From a virus (taxonomy: Duplodnaviria; Heunggongvirae; Uroviricota; Caudoviricetes), in the IMG/VR virus record IMGVR_UViG_2778261417_000008, positions 1 through 33,955 of that record: 33,955 nt of DNA; one strand, given 5' to 3'. The translations under genes and the position numbers were made by a program. The notes below the pieces were generated by a model, which was given only the letters and a program-made list of their open reading frames with translations, did no database searches and was not told the origin of the DNA. Each line of letters begins with the position of its first letter. Positions within the stretch are counted from its first letter, which is position 1. Positions 6,979 through 30,423 of the stretch are shown piece after piece.

Positions 6979-7106
6979 AAAAATCCCTTTTAGTTACCGC
7001 TGATAGCGCGGTTGTAATCATTAACGTTGCGATTCTTCCTGTTAATCCCCATCAGCATCGTTTCTGAACCGCCCCGGGTTTCCTGGAGAGTGTTTTATCT
7101 GTGAAC

Positions 7107-9849
<2,743 letters not shown>

Positions 9850-10267
9850 CGTAAGTAAAATCAGCCACCCACAGCTGGTCAGGTCGTTCTGCCACGAACT
9901 GACGGTTTACGCGGTCGCCTGCGGCAACGGCTTTCCGGCTGATGGTCGTACGGACCTTTTTACCCCGGAGAACACCGGCAAGTCCCATAACCGCCATGAG
10001 ACGTGCCACAGTGCATCTGGCCACTCTGATACCTTCCCGTAACAACTGACGCCAGACTTTACGCACACCGTATACCTTGTGATTTTCATCGTATACGCGC
10101 TGTATCTCTTTCTTCAGCCAGTCATTGCGCTGCGCACGGGCACTGCGTTTATCCGGATGATGTCGCTGTTGCTGACAGTGGTAATACGTTGACGGGGCAA
10201 TATGTAGTTCACTGCATACCGGTCCGACCCCGTACAGCTTACGCAGCTTATCCAGCAGTGGCATCAC
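9850..10267 (-). CDS. IS3-family transposase OrfB, N-terminal exon (upstream of the intron)
   Basis: …QLWVADFTY is the first D of the DDE motif; the ORF-track frame then reads on into intron sequence. Confidence 0.8.
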
Positions 10268-10590
10268 TTTTTCCAGAGGCGGTCGAACTCCGCCTTCGCA
10301 AAATAAGCGGAAGCCTGGCGAAGGATATCGTTACTGCGGCGCAGTTCACGATTTTCACGTTCCAGCTCTTTCAGACGCTGACGTTCAGCGGTGGTGAGCC
10401 CTCCATCACCGCCCCCGGTATCCCGCTCATGCTGGCGAACCCAGACACGCAGAGTCTCCGGCGTACAGCCAATCTTTGGAGCAATGGAACAAATTGTCGC
10501 CCATTGTGAGTCATATTCGCTCTGACTTTCCAGAACCATACGGACTGCCCGTTGACGGACTTCGGGGGAAAAACGAGTATTTTTAGTCAT
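10264..10590 (-). CDS. IS3-family OrfA (HTH/leucine-zipper transposase subunit), IS629-like
   Basis: 108-aa translation [22 protein letters not shown]…[33 protein letters not shown] matches IS629/IS1203 OrfA from memory. Confidence 0.85.
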
Positions 10591-10644
10591 CCTGTTTACC
10601 TCTTTCTCAGGAAGTTTAGTCTCCAGGATTCCCGGGGCGGTTCA

Positions 10645-20342: not shown

Positions 20343-21557
20343 TTAATTACTGACAGTTTCAGGTTTCGGGAAACTGAACAGTAAATCACGATAGTACTCG
20401 TATTGTTTCTGGCGCAACTCGATTTCACGCGGAAGACCTTCGGTGATGGAGTTAGTCAGTGTGTCGAATTTGTCGAGTATTTCGACAATTCGTTGTTGTT
20501 CATTGATGTTAGGAACCGGAATTTTAAATGAAAATAATTTTTTACTGTCAATAGAAGCTACGGACCCTCCTGTCTTTTTCGCTGCTCGCAGAATATCACT
20601 CCCCCTAGACCCAATCATATGATAAATATATTTAACCAAGATGTTTTCATGAGGAATGACTGCTTTCATATCTTGATTGAGCGTAGCAGGTACTTTTATT
20701 AATGCACTTGGTAATACTTTATCCAATATGCTTGAGCGAACAACGATTGCAATCGAGTTTGCTGGAATCAGTTTTGTTGACGATTGTAGAACAGCCTCCT
20801 CAGTTATATAGTCTTCCGAAGAGTCTACAAGTGTTCGGCCCATATCTTTCGGGGAAATCCATGGAATGCTTCCATTTTCCCAAAATTCAATTTTATTTTT
20901 TGATGGTGTCCCTCCCCCATACCATTTTCCGATCTCTCCCAAAGTCTTCCACTCAACCTCACCCTCTTTAAAACTCAACAACTGGTCGCGATAGTAGTTG
21001 TACTGTTTTTTACGCATGTTAAGCTCAGCGGTAAGCTCAGCGGTAAGTGCAGTAAATTTATCCAGAATCCGAACGATTTCAGACTGGATGGCAAGGGATT
21101 TTTCCGGATTATCCGGGCAGGGGATTGGGATTTTTTTTTGAGAATAATTACTAATCCATTGGCGTTTATGGTCTCCCTCTGCGAATTCACTTGGTAATGT
21201 ATTGAGCCAATAGTAAACATATTTCAGTAAGGTTTTATTATCATCACATGATGTAACCATTTTCATGGCCGATGATTTTGCCTTAAAGTCAAAATCCACC
21301 CATTTATTAGCGGTGGTGAAATCATCAAAAATTATTACAGGTGCCTTTGATGCCTGATAAATACCATGAGTCTCATTTGTGTATCCAAGAATAAATGTTT
21401 TTCCGGCAGTAAGAACCGGTATGGTATATGTGTCGTGATAATCTTTTGCTTTTACCAAATACTTTGTTGGCTGTTCATATTTGGTTATTTCCCCCAATGG
21501 CAACCACTCAACTTCAACCCCATCCAGCAATTTTTCCAGATAACTCATCTCGCTCAT
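20343..21557 (-). CDS. hsdS: Type I restriction-modification specificity subunit (HsdS), EcoR124-like
   Basis: 404 aa with two target-recognition domains around a central conserved region containing TAELTAEL; 4-nt overlap with hsdM. Confidence 0.9.
21021..21044 (-). repeat. Tandem 12-bp repeat (2 copies, encoding TAEL-TAEL) in the hsdS central spacer region
   Basis: aagctcagcggt aagctcagcggt on the plus strand; the next 12 nt (21045-21056) are a degenerate third unit. Confidence 0.85.
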
Positions 21558-25237: not shown

Positions 25238-25435
25238 ATGTTACTTAACTGGCAGGGACGCCACTTCATGGAAATAAATCACTCACGAATAACATCGTAC
25301 GAGATTGCGGATTACATGATCCGCACTAAATCTCTTCTATCAGCGAAAGAACTCGCAGCAATTCTTGAAAAGGAATACCCGCATCTGGATGTCGATAAGC
25401 GCGATGTTTATCTGCGCTTACGAACGAAAGCGTGA
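25238..25435 (+). CDS. Putative terminase small-subunit-like N-terminal segment (65-aa ORF)
   Basis: Helix-turn-helix-like small ORF upstream of the large terminase; overlaps the next ORF in a different frame. Confidence 0.35.
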
Positions 25436-25820
25436 AAATAACTGGTCAGTGCTGGAAGCAGCTGAATTCATCGAGGCGCATGGCGGAAAAGTGCCGCCCC
25501 TGATGCTGGAGCAAATCAAAGCCGATCTGCGTGCTCCTAAGACCAATACCGATGATGAGGAAAGGCAAACAGCCGTCGGTGGCCCTTCTCTTGAAGATCT
25601 GGACAAAGTTGCGCGAGAACGGGCCGCCAACCGCCGCGCCGATGCCGCATTGTGGATTGAGCAGCGTAGGGAAGAAATCGCCGATATCGTTGATACAGGC
25701 GGTTATGGAGATGTTGATACTGAAGGTGTATCAAACGACCCATGGCTGGAACAAGACCTGGACGAAGACGAGGAGGAAGACGAAGAAGTTACCCGCAAGC
25801 TATACGGGGATGATGATTAA
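25365..25820 (+). CDS. Putative terminase small-subunit-like C-terminal segment with acidic tail
   Basis: Acidic tail (…[11 protein letters not shown]…); stop overlaps the start of the large terminase (ATGATTAATGG). True start may be the GTG at 25458. Confidence 0.4.
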
Positions 25821-27304
25821 TGGCCAGAAGTTGCGTAACGGATCCACGTTGGCGCGAGCTGGTGGCGCTATATCGTTATGACTGGATTGCTGCCGCTGAT
25901 GTTTTGTTCGGCAAAACACCTACCTGGCAGCAGGATCTGATTATTGAGTCTGTGCAGGAACAGGGTAGCAAGACATCTGTTTCGTCTGGTCACGGTACCG
26001 GGAAATCAGACATGACTTCTATCATGATCATGTTGTTCATAATCATGTATCCCGGTGCCCGCGCCATTATCGTTGCGAACAAAATTCAGCAGGTAATGAC
26101 CGGTATATTCAAGTACATCAAGATAAACTGGGCTACTGCCACCAGCCGTTTTCCATGGCTTGCTGATTATTTTGTTCTGACAGAAACCGCTTTCTATGAG
26201 GTTACTGGTAAAGGTGTATGGACTGTAGTACCGAAGGGCTTTCGTCTGGGAAGTGAAGAAGCTCTCGCCGGTGAACACGCAGATCATCTTCTGTATATTA
26301 TCGATGAAGCCTCCGGTGTCAGTGATAGAGCTTTCGGTATCATCACCGGTGCTCTTACCGGACAGGATAACCGCATCTTATTGCTGTCACAGCCTACACG
26401 CCCAAGCGGCTATTTCTACGATACACACCATAAACTGGCCAAGCGTCCTGGTAACCCTGATGGCGTTTATACGGCGATCACGCTTAACAGTGAGGAATCA
26501 CCGTTGGTAACGCCAGCATTTATCAAAATGAAGCTGGCGGAGTACGGCGGGCGTGATAACCCTATGTACATGATTAAGGTACGCGGCCTATTCCCTAAAT
26601 CACAGGATGGCTTCCTTCTTGGACGTGATGAGGTTGAACGTGCAACGCGGCGGAAAGTCAAGATTGCCAAAGGATGGGGCTGGCTTGCATGTGTGGACGT
26701 TGCTGGTGGTACGGGACGGGATAAGTCCGTTATCAATATCATGATGGTGTCCGGCCAGCGAAATAAACGCCGTGTAATCAACTATCGAATGCTGGAATAC
26801 ACAGACGTTACAGAAACGCAGCTTGCCGCCAAAATTTTCGCAGAATGTAATCCTGAGCGATTCCCAAATATCACCATAGCGATAGACGGCGATGGCCTGG
26901 GTAAAGCAACGGCGGATCTGATGTACGAGTATTATGGTATTACCGTACAGCGTATACGCTGGGGTAAAAAGATGCATAGCCGTGAAGATAAGAGCCTGTA
27001 CTTTGATAAACGTGCTTATGCCAACGTTCAAGCCGCAGAGGCCGTAAAATCTGGTCGTATGAGACTGGATAAGGGTAATGAAACTATTGAGGAAGCGTCG
27101 AAAATCCCTGTAGGGATTAACTCCGCAGGTCAATGGAAGGTGATGAGTAAGGAGGATATGAAGAAAAAACTCAACCTGCACTCACCAGACCATTGGGATA
27201 CATATTGTTTCGCTATGCTGGCGGATTATGTTCCCCAGGATGAAGTGCTTAGCGTCGAAGACGAAGCGCAGGTTGATGAAGCTCTGGCATGGCTTAATGA
27301 ATGA
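25820..27304 (+). CDS. Terminase large subunit (PacB-like), 494 aa
   Basis: Walker A SGHGTGKS and Walker [12 protein letters not shown]; position just upstream of the immunity regions as for P1 pacB. Confidence 0.7.
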
Positions 27305-27307
27305 ATA

Positions 27308-27324
27308 TTTGCTCTAATAAATTG
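27308..27324 (+). promoter_or_regulatory. C1 operator (Op51-like) in front of the c4-icd-ant operon
   Basis: TTTGCTCTAATAAATTG. Confidence 0.65.
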
Positions 27325-27504
27325 TGTTTTTTAACTACCGATGTTACATTGAGCCTGACCTCTTGCGCCTTGAGGCATTTTCGGTTTATGCTTATCAGGC
27401 ACCTCATTAAAACGGGTGCCGGGATTGGCCTCCCGCTTAAGTCTAAGGCGATACAGACGCCGCTCGCGTCTTTTTTTTGTATCGGCGTACACGCACACCT
27501 CTAC

Positions 27505-27580
27505 AATGGTGGGCTGTATGGGGCTACCTTCGGGTAGGCTGGTTACCTTGGACGCCAGTAAGGCCAACTCCGTACAGTCC
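27505..27580 (+). ncRNA. c4: Candidate c4 antisense RNA (immI repressor RNA); boundaries approximate
   Basis: tRNA-like closing stem (ggctgtatgg / ccgtacagtcc) followed by ACCGCC. Internal CCUUGGACG (27545-27553) is complementary, with one G-U, to CGUCUAAGG at the icd ribosome-binding site (27624-27632) and to an upstream copy at 27441-27449. Confidence 0.45.
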
Positions 27581-27643
27581 ACCGCCAGCAAGATTGGTCT
27601 CTTCTGCGGTGGTTACATACCAACGTCTAAGGAGGCTGCCAAT

Positions 27644-27865
27644 ATGGCTACTATCCCTACCCCAACTCATCCTGAATTTATCTGGCGCTTTTACTCCTGC
27701 CAAAAACGTCACTATCACTTCGTTATTGCACCGACAGAAGATGAGGCCCGCTCTCAGCTTCCTGACGCCCCATGTATTTTCTCTGCCCGTTTTTCCACTG
27801 ATTCACGCAATTCTCTCAGTTACTGGTGCCTCCCTGTTAACGCTTCTGCTCAGGAGGGACTATGA
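27644..27865 (+). CDS. icd: Icd (interference with cell division), 73 aa, translationally coupled to ant
   Basis: ATG at 27644 with AAGGAGG upstream; stop overlaps the ant start (ATGA). Confidence 0.6.
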   Translation: MATIPTPTHPEFIWRFYSCQKRHYHFVIAPTEDEARSQLPDAPCIFSARFSTDSRNSLSYWCLPVNASAQEGL

Positions 27866-28980
27866 GAACGTCATTAGTCACCCGTGAAGAGATGATCGAG
27901 GCAATTGAACAGCACACTGCCTGTATCAGTACCAGGGATATACCAGGCGTTATTGCCAACTACTTCATGATCACCAAACAACTTTACCGGAGAAAGGACA
28001 AGAACGCGGTTCACCGTATCCTGTTGTCTGATATCCGCGAATACCTGCTCGAACAGGGTCATCTGAATTACGCAACCGCCGCAGCCGAAGCACGCAAGGA
28101 GGCACACAGAATGAAAGCAACTAACGTTAAATCAGAAAAAATTCATGCACCTTCAGTTCAAGAATCGGAGCTGGTGGTTGTTCAGAATCAGTCTGATGAA
28201 ATTCCCGTTCTGGAATGGCAGGGAGTGCGTGTAGTGACAACCGAGACTCTTGCTAGAGGGTATGGGACAGAAACAATCCGTATTCGCCAAAATCATCATG
28301 AGAACAAAGTACGCTTTGTTGAAGGGAAGCACTTTTTCAAAGTTGAAGGAGAATCATTGCGCGAGTTGAAGCACAGAGTAGCTTTAAACTACTCTGTAAA
28401 AATTGCTCGCAATGTTCGCTCACTCACCCTCTGGACAGAACGCGGCGCAGCCCGCCACGCTAAAATGCTCGAAACCGATCAGGCATGGGCATTCTTTGAA
28501 AAACTGGAAGACAGCTACTTCCGACAAAAAGAACAGCAACCGATCGCAATCCCCCAGACGCTTCCTGAAGCCCTACGCCTGGCTGCCGAACTGGCTGAAC
28601 AAAAGCAACTTCTGGAACAGAAAGCCCACCAGCTAAATCAGCAGCTGGTGGCCGCCGCTCCTAAAGTCGATTTTGCCGACCGGGTATCAGTAGCTAAAGG
28701 GATCCTGATTGGGAATTTTGCAAAGGTTGTTGGACTTAAACAAAACGCGCTGTTTGTCTGGTTACGGGAGAACGGCATCCTGATAGCGTCCGGTGGACGT
28801 AAAAATGTGCCGTTCCAGCAGTACATCAACGCGGGGTATTTCACGGTGAAAGAAGTGGTGCTGGATGATGAAGATGGCTACCAGATACGGTTGACGCCTC
28901 AATTAACGGGTAAAGGCCAGCAGTGGTTGACGCGTAAACTGCTCGATGCTGGCTTGTTAAAACCGGTGGCGGCTGAATAA
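27862..28980 (+). CDS. ant: Antirepressor Ant (Ant1, 372 aa; an in-frame internal start near codon 84 would give Ant2)
   Basis: ORF6N/Bro-N-like N-terminal region and KilA-C/ANT-type C-terminal domain; sizes fit the reported 42 and 32 kDa P1 Ant1/Ant2. Confidence 0.7.
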   Translation: MRTSLVTREEMIEAIEQHTACISTRDIPGVIANYFMITKQLYRRKDKNAVHRILLSDIREYLLEQGHLNYATAAAEARKEAHRMKATNVKSEKIHAPSVQESELVVVQNQSDEIPVLEWQGVRVVTTETLARGYGTETIRIRQNHHENKVRFVEGKHFFKVEGESLRELKHRVALNYSVKIARNVRSLTLWTERGAARHAKMLETDQAWAFFEKLEDSYFRQKEQQPIAIPQTLPEALRLAAELAEQKQLLEQKAHQLNQQLVAAAPKVDFADRVSVAKGILIGNFAKVVGLKQNALFVWLRENGILIASGGRKNVPFQQYINAGYFTVKEVVLDDEDGYQIRLTPQLTGKGQQWLTRKLLDAGLLKPVAAE

Positions 28981-28987
28981 TGGAAGA

Positions 28988-29009
28988 ATGCCCGGTTGAT
29001 GCCGGGCAT
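28988..29009. terminator. Bidirectional hairpin terminator between convergent ant and c1
   Basis: ATGCCCGG-ttgatg-CCGGGCAT. Confidence 0.6.
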
Positions 29010-29012
29010 AAT

Positions 29013-29864
29013 TTATTGCGCGCTTTCGGGGTTGTCGTTTACTGGCTGCCCCTTCTTGGTTTTACGGCTGCGCGTAACTGATGCGGCTGACTTAACCTTT
29101 TTCTCTTCGCGAGTGATGGCAATTTGTTTTTTTACATTTTCAATATCTGCCAGGCGATATATTTTTGCTTGCGGCCAGCGGTCGCAGATGATCGGTTCTA
29201 TGGAGTCATAAAGGCTAAATTTTGCTTTTTCGAATTCACCGTTGATGATAATTCCATCACGGAGAGTTTCATCGCAGATAAACACGCCACACAGTGGCAC
29301 ATGGTAACTAACTGATTTACCATCATTGTAGTTAGGGCTACTGGAAATGTAGTGGACGCGCAGCATTGTTTCGCTAAAGCCGTGTACGCGCATACGGAAT
29401 TTTTCATCCTCCGGGTACTGCTTCATTAGCTCTTTTGTTGCTTCCAGGTTCTCTATGTATTTCGCACTGTGCTCATTGATCCCCGCGCTTTTTTGGATGC
29501 GAATGTCCTTATCAATCAGATGAATAATGCGGCCAGCGGTCATGTTGACGCTGTTCACAGCTTCTGTCTGATAAGTTGTAACCTTACGCACACCGCGAAG
29601 GATGTTAGGCACTGGATATAAAATAGTCTTTGGGATATTGAGGTCTGGGTACTGTTCCAGTTCCCGCGCCATTAAAGTCCATTTATCAATTTCAGCCTGA
29701 ATGCTGTCAGTTTCTTTGAACGGTAGAACGACAACCGGGCGTACAGGACGACCGTCGCTGGCTGTATCAACGTGTTGGGCGCGTGCAACAGCTTTTTTTA
29801 GAAAGAGATCCCTGAAGCTGACGAACTCCTGGTACAGTTGTTCGCCGTAGACATAATTTATCAT
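29013..29864 (-). CDS. c1: C1 repressor of lysogeny (283 aa)
   Basis: Translation MINYVYGEQLYQEFVSFRDLFLKKAVARAQHVD… matches P1 C1 from memory. Confidence 0.95.
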   Translation of the reverse strand: MINYVYGEQLYQEFVSFRDLFLKKAVARAQHVDTASDGRPVRPVVVLPFKETDSIQAEIDKWTLMARELEQYPDLNIPKTILYPVPNILRGVRKVTTYQTEAVNSVNMTAGRIIHLIDKDIRIQKSAGINEHSAKYIENLEATKELMKQYPEDEKFRMRVHGFSETMLRVHYISSSPNYNDGKSVSYHVPLCGVFICDETLRDGIIINGEFEKAKFSLYDSIEPIICDRWPQAKIYRLADIENVKKQIAITREEKKVKSAASVTRSRKTKKGQPVNDNPESAQ

Positions 29865-29957
29865 TGATCCTCCTCCAGAATTGACATGGTCAATAACGCC
29901 CGGCTGAGAAAACCGGTCATTACTGACCTATATTATAGAGGGATCAAACAAAAATAA

Positions 29958-29976
29958 TAGATTTATTAGTGCATTT
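29958..29976 (-). promoter_or_regulatory. C1 operator (Op99-type) between coi and c1
   Basis: Reverse complement reads ATGCACTAATAAAT. Confidence 0.55.
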
Positions 29977-30184
29977 ATTGTGAGTCTAACTGGTTAGTTG
30001 CCATGAGATATTCGATTGTGTCAGTGAGGTCATCCAGGTCGTCTTGGGTGATGCGGTACTCCTGATTGGATATCTTTGAGTAGTGTTCAGCAATGGCGCG
30101 GGCAGCGTCGGTTTCGGCAGGGTCTACAGATAAAGCGTTAGAGCAATGTCTAACGTCGTCGATGGTTGGTGGAATGAAAGCCAT
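29975..30184 (-). CDS. coi: Coi (C1 inactivator), 69 aa
   Basis: 69-aa ORF immediately upstream of c1 on the same strand, as in P1 immC. Confidence 0.8.
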   Translation of the reverse strand: MAFIPPTIDDVRHCSNALSVDPAETDAARAIAEHYSKISNQEYRITQDDLDDLTDTIEYLMATNQLDSQ

Positions 30185-30423
30185 AATTATGCCTCACTGT
30201 ATTGACAACACAGAGCCTGAAGCTCTGACCTACTGTTTCACCCATGATCCATGCTGGGGTAATCTAACAACATTGCGCTGTGTGTAAGATGAGCAATGCA
30301 TAGCTGTAATGCCGTTGTATAAGGTTTCCCTGTTTGCTCATTTCCTTCTGAGCCGCTCTACAACGCTGAAGACACATTAAATAGTGAATCCAAAGTCGTA
30401 TTACGAAACGGCGGCAAAACTAT

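Follow-up and report, generated by a model that had tools for sequence, protein, structure and literature searches.

What is the 1.7-kb segment that lies between the terminase gene pacB and the repressor gene c1 of a P1-like phage-plasmid: the immunity region immI in a new place, or an additional one? In Escherichia coli and Salmonella, P1-like phage-plasmids commonly carry resistance and virulence genes, and immunity specificity decides which of them coexist, exclude or induce each other. The stretch analysed here (the window) comprises the 33,955 nucleotides (nt) of virus record IMGVR_UViG_2778261417_000008 and is a segment of such an element, whose pacA/pacB, c1, coi, cre and ref genes follow the order of P1. 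An earlier sequence-only reading had noted a C1 operator, a tRNA-like segment, an icd gene and an antirepressor gene after the large terminase gene, and had proposed that immI (c4-icd-ant) is juxtaposed here with immC (c1-coi). All the elements that it listed are present at, or within 1–2 nt of, the positions it gave (Table 1). Our analysis makes it probable that window positions 27303–29013 are a self-contained, supernumerary immI-type cassette, in which the antisense RNA C4 is proposed to silence ant.

In P1, Ant synthesis is repressed by c4 RNA, and Ant1/Ant2 is the antirepressor that antagonizes C1 (PMC8546580; P1 record notes). Reviews and reference titles (PMC8546580, PMC12197685, PMC6906374) describe the P1 c4 RNA as a processed molecule of 77 nt and attribute the heteroimmunity of P1 and P7 to c4.

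Antisense pairing between C4 and the icd start

The segment upstream of icd matches the Rfam family of C4 antisense RNAs over its full length (RF01695, model positions 1–87 of 87). Its minimum free energy structure, at −41.6 kcal/mol (z = −2.95), has the consensus shape of a closing stem enclosing two hairpins, and the Rfam and folding checks that the sequence-only reading had proposed for a c4 RNA thus agree with it. The 'tRNA-like' appearance is explained by an acceptor-stem-plus-CCA shape: the 3′ ACCGCC lies at 27581–27586, and a stem-N-CCA 3′ end (CCACC-G-CCA) is present. The segment is not a tRNA gene, however, as an ARAGORN scan of the window detected neither tRNAs nor tmRNAs.

The complementarity between C4 and the icd Shine–Dalgarno sequence that had been noticed earlier (CCUUGGACG with CGUCUAAGG, 9 bp) is backed by co-variation in 15 loci, and the upstream target reported at 27441–27449 is found as GUCUAAGG at 27441–27448. 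That account was incomplete, as it had seen the pairing of b′ with the b boxes and missed that of a′ with a1 and a2. The resulting order, a1/b1 ... c4 ... a2/b2, matches the layout annotated in P1. The b-box 8-mer occurs at only two places in the window, upstream and at the icd Shine–Dalgarno sequence, and the composite motif TTGGYCT-N8-30-GTCTAAGG is found exactly twice, against none in 100 shuffles.

Co-variation was scored in an alignment (A3) of 15 loci with an isrK-type leader from P1-like plasmids and phages, Stx-converting phages, SfV, phiP27 and others; all 15 carry isrK and then C4 in tandem. P1, P7-type and yong2 sequences, in which the boxes misaligned, were left out of this alignment and handled by direct pairing. 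For C4 a′/b′ with a2/b2, 99.6% of cells pair and 11 of the 15 base pairs have changed on both sides, a level of co-variation reached in none of 500 shuffles. The same co-variation is seen with a1/b1. Slid controls paired in 20–48% of cells for a2/b2, and in 20–52% over the a2/b2 and a1/b1 tests. The C4 fold itself is paired in 99.8% of cells, with 13 compensatory pairs.

When 13 c4 RNAs were matched with 13 targets, each c4 paired best, or tied for best, with its own target. The window c4 forms 15 bp with its cognate target and at most 11 bp elsewhere, P1 and P7 type included. In JL22, RCS47 and pMB9880_2, which each encode two c4 RNAs on one replicon, the two mismatch each other's targets (10–12 bp versus 15–16 bp for cognate pairs). 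Because of the co-variation and the pairing matrix, the c4/icd pairing is, as far as sequence comparison can tell, functional by the standard comparative criterion, and allele-specific.

A further complementarity lies between a2 and b2, where GCGGUGG (27606–27612, + strand) complements the 3′ stem strand of C4, CCACCGC (27579–27585). It is 100% paired in the 15 loci, with double changes at only two pairs, and RCS47 (CUACCGC/GCGGUAG) and SfV (CACCACC/GGUGGUG) keep complementarity of this type. We tentatively suggest that the alternative hairpin would compete with C4 folding and show a2 in a loop of the unprocessed transcript; the alternatives named structure A and B in PMC4825925 may be its counterpart.

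Leader, operator and the icd–ant genes

Upstream of C4 lies a leader that matches isrK over the whole Rfam model (27399–27476, model positions 1–77 of 77) and carries the a1 and b1 boxes. The sequence-only reading had equated the architecture with that of P1. The immI-type c4-icd-ant order and the P1-style antisense control stand, but the leader is isrK (60.8 bits), not c4-a1b1: RF03163, the c4-a1b1 leader family, has no match in the window and is present in P1 and in the canonical immI of pMB9880_2.

The predicted C1 operator after the terminase gene has two mismatches (15 of 17 matches) to the 17-bp consensus ATTGCTCTAATAAATTT and aligns with P1 Oc4; at up to three mismatches, the window contains 10 operator matches where 0.19 are expected. 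This candidate operator overlaps a promoter candidate that, by alignment with the annotated P1 promoter, is the positional equivalent of P1 P2c4/P51a, and would control it as in P1 immI. The upstream promoter is predicted from a weak consensus match. A second candidate, whose −35 and −10 each lie at a constant distance from the isrK model start in 16 of 16 isrK-type loci, would give a +1 at about 27399.

The icd and ant products, of 73 and 372 amino acids as previously noted, are recognizable by homology. Icd is 80% identical to P1 Icd from residue 8 and belongs to NCBIfam NF033153. Ant belongs to PHROG 63 ('anti-repressor Ant') and has a P1-Ant1-like N-terminus, an ORF6N centre and a KilAC/ANT C-terminus (Pfam; BLASTP against P1 Ant1; mosaic analysis); Pfam gave no match for Icd, C1 or Coi. 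Met84 of Ant aligns with the P1 Ant2 start, with a conserved Shine–Dalgarno sequence, and both icd–ant1 coupling by the ATGA overlap and a nested ant2 are predicted, as in P1 immI. Both genes are intact and under purifying selection, with ratios of non-synonymous to synonymous substitution rates (dN/dS) of 0.02–0.07 for icd and 0.21–0.36 for ant. Beyond ant, the hairpin described earlier as a bidirectional terminator facing c1 is only partly supported as such: it is terminator-like on the + strand, whereas on the − strand the U-tract is weaker and the scan criteria fail.

Table 1 Features of the cassette and of other parts of the window (window positions).
Feature	Position	Strand	Details
C1 operator (Op51/Oc4-like), candidate	27308–27324	+	TTTGCTCTAATAAATTG; directly after pacB stop
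Upstream promoter, candidate	27322–27350	+	−35 TTGTGT 27322–27327, 17 nt, −10 TACATT 27345–27350
Second promoter, candidate	27363–27392	+	−35 TTGCGC 27363–27368, 18 nt, −10 TATGCT 27387–27392
isrK-type leader RNA	27399–27479	+	RF01394, 60.8 bits (gathering score 50)
a1 box	27425–27431	+	UUGGCCU; in hairpin loop
b1 box	27441–27448	+	GUCUAAGG; upstream copy of b2
Leader intrinsic terminator	stem 27455–27471, U8 27472–27479	+	Terminator scan, fold
C4 antisense RNA	27502–27589	+	RF01695, 75.9 bits (gathering 45), E 2.5e-13
Mature C4, predicted	27508–27586	+	Ends predicted from annotated P1 c4
b′ box	27546–27554	+	CCUUGGACG; C4 hairpin-2 loop
a′ box	27561–27567	+	AGGCCAA; C4 single-stranded joint (8 nt)
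a2 target box	27594–27600	+	UUGGUCU; 7 bp with a′, one G–U
b2 target box	27624–27632	+	CGUCUAAGG; 9 bp with b′, one G–U; overlaps icd Shine–Dalgarno
icd Shine–Dalgarno	27629–27635	+	AAGGAGG; overlapped by b2
icd	27644–27865	+	73 amino acids; Icd-like cell division inhibitor, translational coupler for ant
ant1-like antirepressor	27862–28980	+	372 amino acids; ATGA overlap with icd
ant2-like nested in-frame frame, predicted	28111–28980	+	289 amino acids; own Shine–Dalgarno AAGGAGG 28096–28102
GC-rich 9-bp hairpin	28988–29009		Between ant stop and c1 stop (29013); convergent genes
c1 repressor	29013–29864	−	283 amino acids; 99% identical to P1 C1; presumed Ant target
Group II intron domain	7580–7666	−	RF00029; ltrA in matching records
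ALIL frameshift pseudoknot	10193–10309	−	RF01497; within IS3-family element

An alignment with P1 immI, suggested by the sequence-only reading, finds the operator, the layout of the boxes, icd and the ant2 start conserved, but the centre of Ant unrelated and the leader family different. The likeness to P1/P7 immI comprises a C1 operator over the upstream promoter, a C4 of the same Rfam family and fold, two-box pairing of a′/b′ to a2/b2 with b2 over the icd Shine–Dalgarno sequence and a1/b1 upstream, and a 73-residue Icd frame overlapping ant1 by ATGA, with ant2 nested at codon 84 and KilAC 87% identical. The cassette differs in lying between pacB and c1, whereas that of P1/P7 lies between sim and kilA-repL; in having an isrK (RF01394) leader where P1 has c4-a1b1 (RF03163); in its boxes (UUGGYCU and GUCUAAGG); and in the other origin of the first seven Icd codons and the ORF6N domain. 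Ant1/Ant2 may bind and inactivate C1 as in P1; the resemblance to P1 Ant1 is confined to the N-terminus and KilAC.

The cassette also resembles the isrK–STnc1160 ('orf45')–anrP cassette of Gifsy-1 and the isrK–C4–antirepressor/Rha cassettes of Stx/lambdoid phages. Common to all are an isrK-type leader with an intrinsic terminator, a C4 about 25 nt downstream of the leader (25-nt spacer in the window), a first open reading frame (ORF) that starts MAT(I/V)P and is followed by an antirepressor-type gene, and a promoter at the same distance. Unlike them, the window has P1-type icd and ant1/ant2 in place of orf45/AnrP or Rha, a P1 C1 operator and an extra promoter before the leader, other boxes and a plasmid-prophage host. 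The cassette has the testable features of isrK–C4–antirepressor cassettes and most of the defining features of P1 immI, from which it departs in map position and leader family. A further parallel is phage P4, whose CI RNA, processed and C4-like, pairs with complementary targets (seqA/seqC) that flank its gene on either side; it acts by terminating transcription, without an antirepressor. In Gifsy-1, the processed C4-like RNA STnc1160 arises downstream of isrK, and the authors compare it with P4 CI RNA immunity (PMC4825925).

We propose the following mechanism, by analogy with these homologues. Two promoters would feed one transcript, the upstream one under the C1 operator and the downstream one starting at about 27399. 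Most transcripts would end at the intrinsic terminator (27455–27479), giving an isrK-type RNA of about 80 nt that bears a1/b1, and read-through transcripts would include C4, excised as a stable RNA of about 79 nt. The b′ loop and a′ joint of C4 would pair with b2 and a2, which immediately precede icd, and block the icd Shine–Dalgarno sequence; with icd untranslated, the coupled ant1 and the nested ant2 would not be made and C1 would stay active. If there is no C4, if it is outnumbered or if the a1b1 leader RNA sequesters it, Icd and Ant would be made and Ant would inactivate C1. P1 precedents include RNase P processing of C4 and Rho-dependent polarity. Directly supported in our data are the sequence elements, folds, pairings and co-variation, purifying selection and the co-occurrence of canonical immI in relatives. 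Experiments on homologues supply C4 repression of icd/ant and the action of Ant1/2 against C1 (P1/P7), and termination and read-through, trans-activation and AUGA coupling (Gifsy-1).

The role given to the leader draws on Gifsy-1, in which most transcription from the isrK promoter ends at the isrK terminator, with some read-through; the short IsrK RNA accumulates, binds Hfq and, when supplied in trans, activates translation of the downstream ORF and of the antirepressor by about 140-fold (PMC4825925). The IsrK pairings reported there, G28–C162 and G31–C159, can be located in the homologous sal3 locus, where G28 and G31 fall in a1 and their partners, 3 nt apart and antiparallel, in C4 a′. Because these positions map to a1 and a′, we infer that IsrK is an a1b1 leader acting as a C4 competitor (sponge). 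The Salmonella small RNA IsrK would thereby be tied to the a1/b1 boxes of P1, suggesting an anti-antisense function; no paper linking the two was found in the literature searched.

The pacB/c1 junction and its cassette alleles

P1 homology is interrupted between the pacB stop (27302) and the c1 stop (29014), where the 1.7-kb cassette replaces the 24-bp P1 spacer, with boundaries exactly at the two stops. The cassette abuts c1-coi, as the sequence-only reading had seen, but as a discrete insert in the pacB/c1 spacer and not as a relocated immI. Nor is the juxtaposition unusual: of 709 PLSDB records with pacB/c1 flanks, 322 have an empty junction and about 290 (~41%) a full cassette. About 80 plasmid records carry the cassette at ≥99% identity, and 442 PLSDB records have an isrK-type leader, about 104 of them the window allele at ≥95% identity. 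As a separate observation, the cassette sits at a border between backbone segments of unequal divergence, pacB (25405–27302) being 83% and the c1-coi side (29014–30400) 96% identical to P1 DNA. The 24-bp spacer of P1, CTCATTAACCATGCCGGATGGAAAC (L006, 1908–1931), forms a short hairpin that shares ATGCCGG with the window hairpin (28986–29012); from this weak resemblance, the 'empty' P1 site could be the scar of a deletion instead of ancestral.

The pacB/c1 insertion is already known, and the window carries a further allele of it. Venturini et al. (2019; PMC6906374) mention it in a single sentence, as an insertion of 'two short hypothetical orfs' and ant at pacB/c1 that RCS47 also has, and hundreds of records annotate the cassette as an Icd-like protein plus an antirepressor. 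The ant insertion of RCS47/pTZ20_1P has the same site and icd–ant backbone, at 92% identity overall, but in RCS47 the leader, c4 and target segment are only 71% identical to the window and the boxes are UUGAGAC (a) and GUCAAAGG (b). The published account covers the ORFs, without the RNA circuit (PMC6906374). The full RNA circuit of the cassette, its orthogonality to co-resident immI and the combinatorial diversity of its boxes appear to be undescribed; they are of moderate specialist interest, the cassette itself being an ordinary member of a well-known phage switch.

The closest relative found, E. coli plasmid pMB9880_2 (NZ_CP103764.1), is collinear with the window at 97–99% identity and carries a 100% identical cassette together with icd-ant-kilA-repL at 53.1–56.2 kb, with a P7-type c4. 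The canonical c4-icd-ant1/2-kilA-repL block is present in all four complete relatives examined (pMB9880_2, vB_EcoM-673R5, JL22 and RCS47), and 28 of the best 30 plasmid matches have a second ant-matching place. The window begins about 5 kb beyond the expected position of canonical immI, which we infer is also present in the window's own replicon. Sequence comparison indicates that the cassette is a distinct allele and not canonical immI DNA that has moved, because the leader family, boxes and central domain of Ant differ.

The cassette is a mosaic. Its operator and first-promoter segment aligns with P1 Oc4/P2c4, and the 5′ hairpin of its leader is 100% identical to that of RCS47-type cassettes, whereas the spacer, c4 and a2 core are 68–80% identical to the Stx-phage type and only 33–60% to RCS47. 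Icd residues 1–7 (MATIPTP) are of the lambdoid cassette type, the rest being P1-like. The N-terminus of Ant is about 59% identical to P1 Ant1 and 96–100% among cassettes; the ORF6N centre is unrelated to P1 Ant1, 71% identical between alleles and 62% identical to an antirepressor of Shigella phage Ss-VASD; and the KilAC C-terminus, 87% identical to P1, is 99% identical among cassettes. The Ss-VASD protein in question is the product of its second antirepressor gene, directly upstream of which lies sRNA-Xcc1 (RF02221, 79.6 bits; L008, 3524–3607); the two may form another RNA-controlled unit (compare PMC7313666).

The boxes of the window, UUGGYCU/GUCUAAGG, match neither P1 (UUGACAG, GUUAGUG) nor P7-type (UUAGCAG, ACUUACG) boxes. 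The other a/b combinations at pacB/c1 are UUGAGAC/GUCAAAGG, UUGAGAC/GCAAAAGG, UUGGAAC/GUCAAAGG and UUGGAAC/GCAAAAGG, and the five found are a lower bound. As P1, P7 and the other cassette alleles have different boxes, the window module would confer an immunity specificity of its own, on top of the canonical immI that close relatives keep next to kilA-repL. Cassettes with isrK-type leaders are not confined to pacB/c1: c4-icd cassettes of this type also lie downstream of ref in two plasmids and at the kilA-adjacent immI site of pMS6198C (L016, 2202–2661; L019, 2202–2682; L021, 2204–3777). Leader type is therefore independent of site, and a replicon can carry modules at up to three sites. Canonical immI specificities likewise exceed the P1 and P7 types (673R5, JL22 and RCS47; L022, L023 and L024): a new b box, GAUUGUG, accompanies the P1 a box in JL22 and the P7 a box in RCS47, and in 673R5 the P7 a box is joined by ACGAAUG.

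A broader reading, which we offer tentatively and hold to be possible more than probable, is that P1-family phage-plasmids run a multi-locus combinatorial RNA immunity code instead of one P1-or-P7 immI. Up to three sites (pacB/c1, downstream of ref, beside kilA) would each be able to hold c4-icd-ant; a and b boxes would reassort independently, five or more combinations being seen at each of pacB/c1 and the canonical site; and the c4 specificity core would be exchanged with lambdoid Stx prophages. The modules of one replicon would be mutually orthogonal, and the isrK-type leader would be a built-in C4 sponge, making each module a switch. If this is true, each extra module would broaden both superinfection immunity and the capacity to lift C1 repression in a rival prophage. 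At the level of antisense RNA (c4), P1 immunity consists of modules that are often duplicated and far more diverse than the P1/P7 pair, and their 7–9-nt boxes could allow immunity groups to be predicted from sequence.

Competing explanations and the surrounding sequence

Several points weigh against a supernumerary, C4-silenced immI cassette. The helices of a′ with a2 and of b′ with the b boxes are only 7–9 bp long and each contains a G–U pair, and the ends and processing of mature C4 are predicted by analogy. A consensus promoter scan found no + strand promoter at 27300–27400, and the promoter calls, both weak matches, therefore rest on P1 alignment and positional conservation. The Gifsy-1 authors propose alternative mRNA structures for their locus, not a sponge role of IsrK (PMC4825925). 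Ant binding to C1 is not certain, because the central ORF6N domain is unrelated to the centre of P1 Ant1. Finally, a deletion of about 14 kb associated with an insertion sequence (IS) might have left the window replicon without canonical immI.

The best-surviving alternative, though a somewhat unlikely one, keeps the same molecular mechanism and gives it another selective purpose: the cassette would serve mainly inter-phage warfare and not the phage's own lysis–lysogeny control. On entry into a cell whose resident P1-like prophage has no cognate c4, Ant would be made, the shared C1 inactivated and the resident induced; once resident, the extra c4 would silence incoming phages of the same allele. 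Such a role would fit a C1 that is 99% conserved beside c4 boxes that are hypervariable and orthogonal, the presence/absence polymorphism of the cassette (about 290 occupied versus 322 empty sites), the cassettes at three sites, with five or more a/b combinations at one of them, as well as the reliance of P1/P7 heteroimmunity on c4 differences (PMC6906374, PMC12197685). The same diversity could equally stem from neutral recombination with lambdoid prophages.

We consider it improbable that the cassette is the sole immI of its replicon, moved from the sim/kilA-repL area to a place beside immC and fusing the immunity regions. The sequence-only reading was correct that no kilA-repL follows ant: kilA, repL and a second icd/ant are absent from the whole 34-kb window, where tblastn of P1 KilA, RepL, SimC and RlfA gave only a KilAC-domain cross-match inside ant. 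The replicon is also rearranged and lacks about 14 kb that its nearest relative has, no record in the collections searched covers its IS/intron junction, and some P1-like plasmids, such as pJIE250-3, have lost immI and repL (PMC6906374). However, the canonical immI position is outside the window, and the check for kilA/repL elsewhere that had been recommended, made on complete relatives, finds the canonical block in four of four: the plasmid with the identical cassette and three phages with allelic cassettes keep it. The second ant-matching place in most of the best plasmid matches argues the same way, as do the differences between cassette and canonical immI in leader family, boxes and Ant centre.

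That the supernumerary cassette is instead in decay or inert, a leftover that recombination has brought along and that has no present function, is very hard to sustain. Damaged copies exist: ant is cut to 184 amino acids in p13C1065T-3, the insert is partial in CP098963.1, and an IS interrupts it in NZ_CP060066.1. In the window, by contrast, all parts are intact, the dN/dS values given above apply, and every RNA contact is kept by compensatory changes; the roughly 80 near-identical plasmid records also speak against decay. A coding function of 27300–27640 in small proteins and not RNAs can practically be dismissed, for although ORFs are present (for example, a 78-residue frame at 27301–27537) and databases annotate such ORFs ('ash family protein', 'hypothetical protein'; 'two short hypothetical orfs' in PMC6906374), two RNA covariance models match here, the sequence varies by compensatory changes in RNA helices and in the intermolecular boxes, and 20-nt spacer indels misfit protein conservation.

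Annotation pipelines call a 39-residue 'ash family protein' ORF over the C4 gene (loci L017–L021; for example, L017, 2337–2456), and longer 'hypothetical', 'Ash' or 'Rha' ORFs are called there too (L014, 1279–1962; many plasmids and phages). The ORFs annotated over the C4 region, 'ash family protein' and 'hypothetical protein' among them, are probably mis-annotations of an RNA gene.

Outside the cassette, collinearity with pMB9880_2 breaks at an IS/intron region, at the ~14-kb deletion and in part of hsdS. The first is an IS3-family element (IS629/IS1203-like; 7063–10644) interrupted by a group II intron; this IS-plus-intron unit is widespread in E. coli, but with other flanks, and no record in PLSDB or among complete E. 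coli genomes covers the IS629/group II intron junction with the window's flanks. At the junction, at about 7063–7066, the roughly 14 kb that lie between the repA side and the IS in comparison with pMB9880_2 are absent; in that plasmid they comprise rdgC, a dam-type methylase gene, tciA-like genes and dnaB/ban. The loss is an IS-associated deletion, and the window replicon may therefore be a defective prophage. The other non-matching stretch, 20477–21504, maps inside hsdS, the specificity gene of a type I restriction-modification system, and the restriction-modification specificity of the window plasmid probably differs from that of pMB9880_2.

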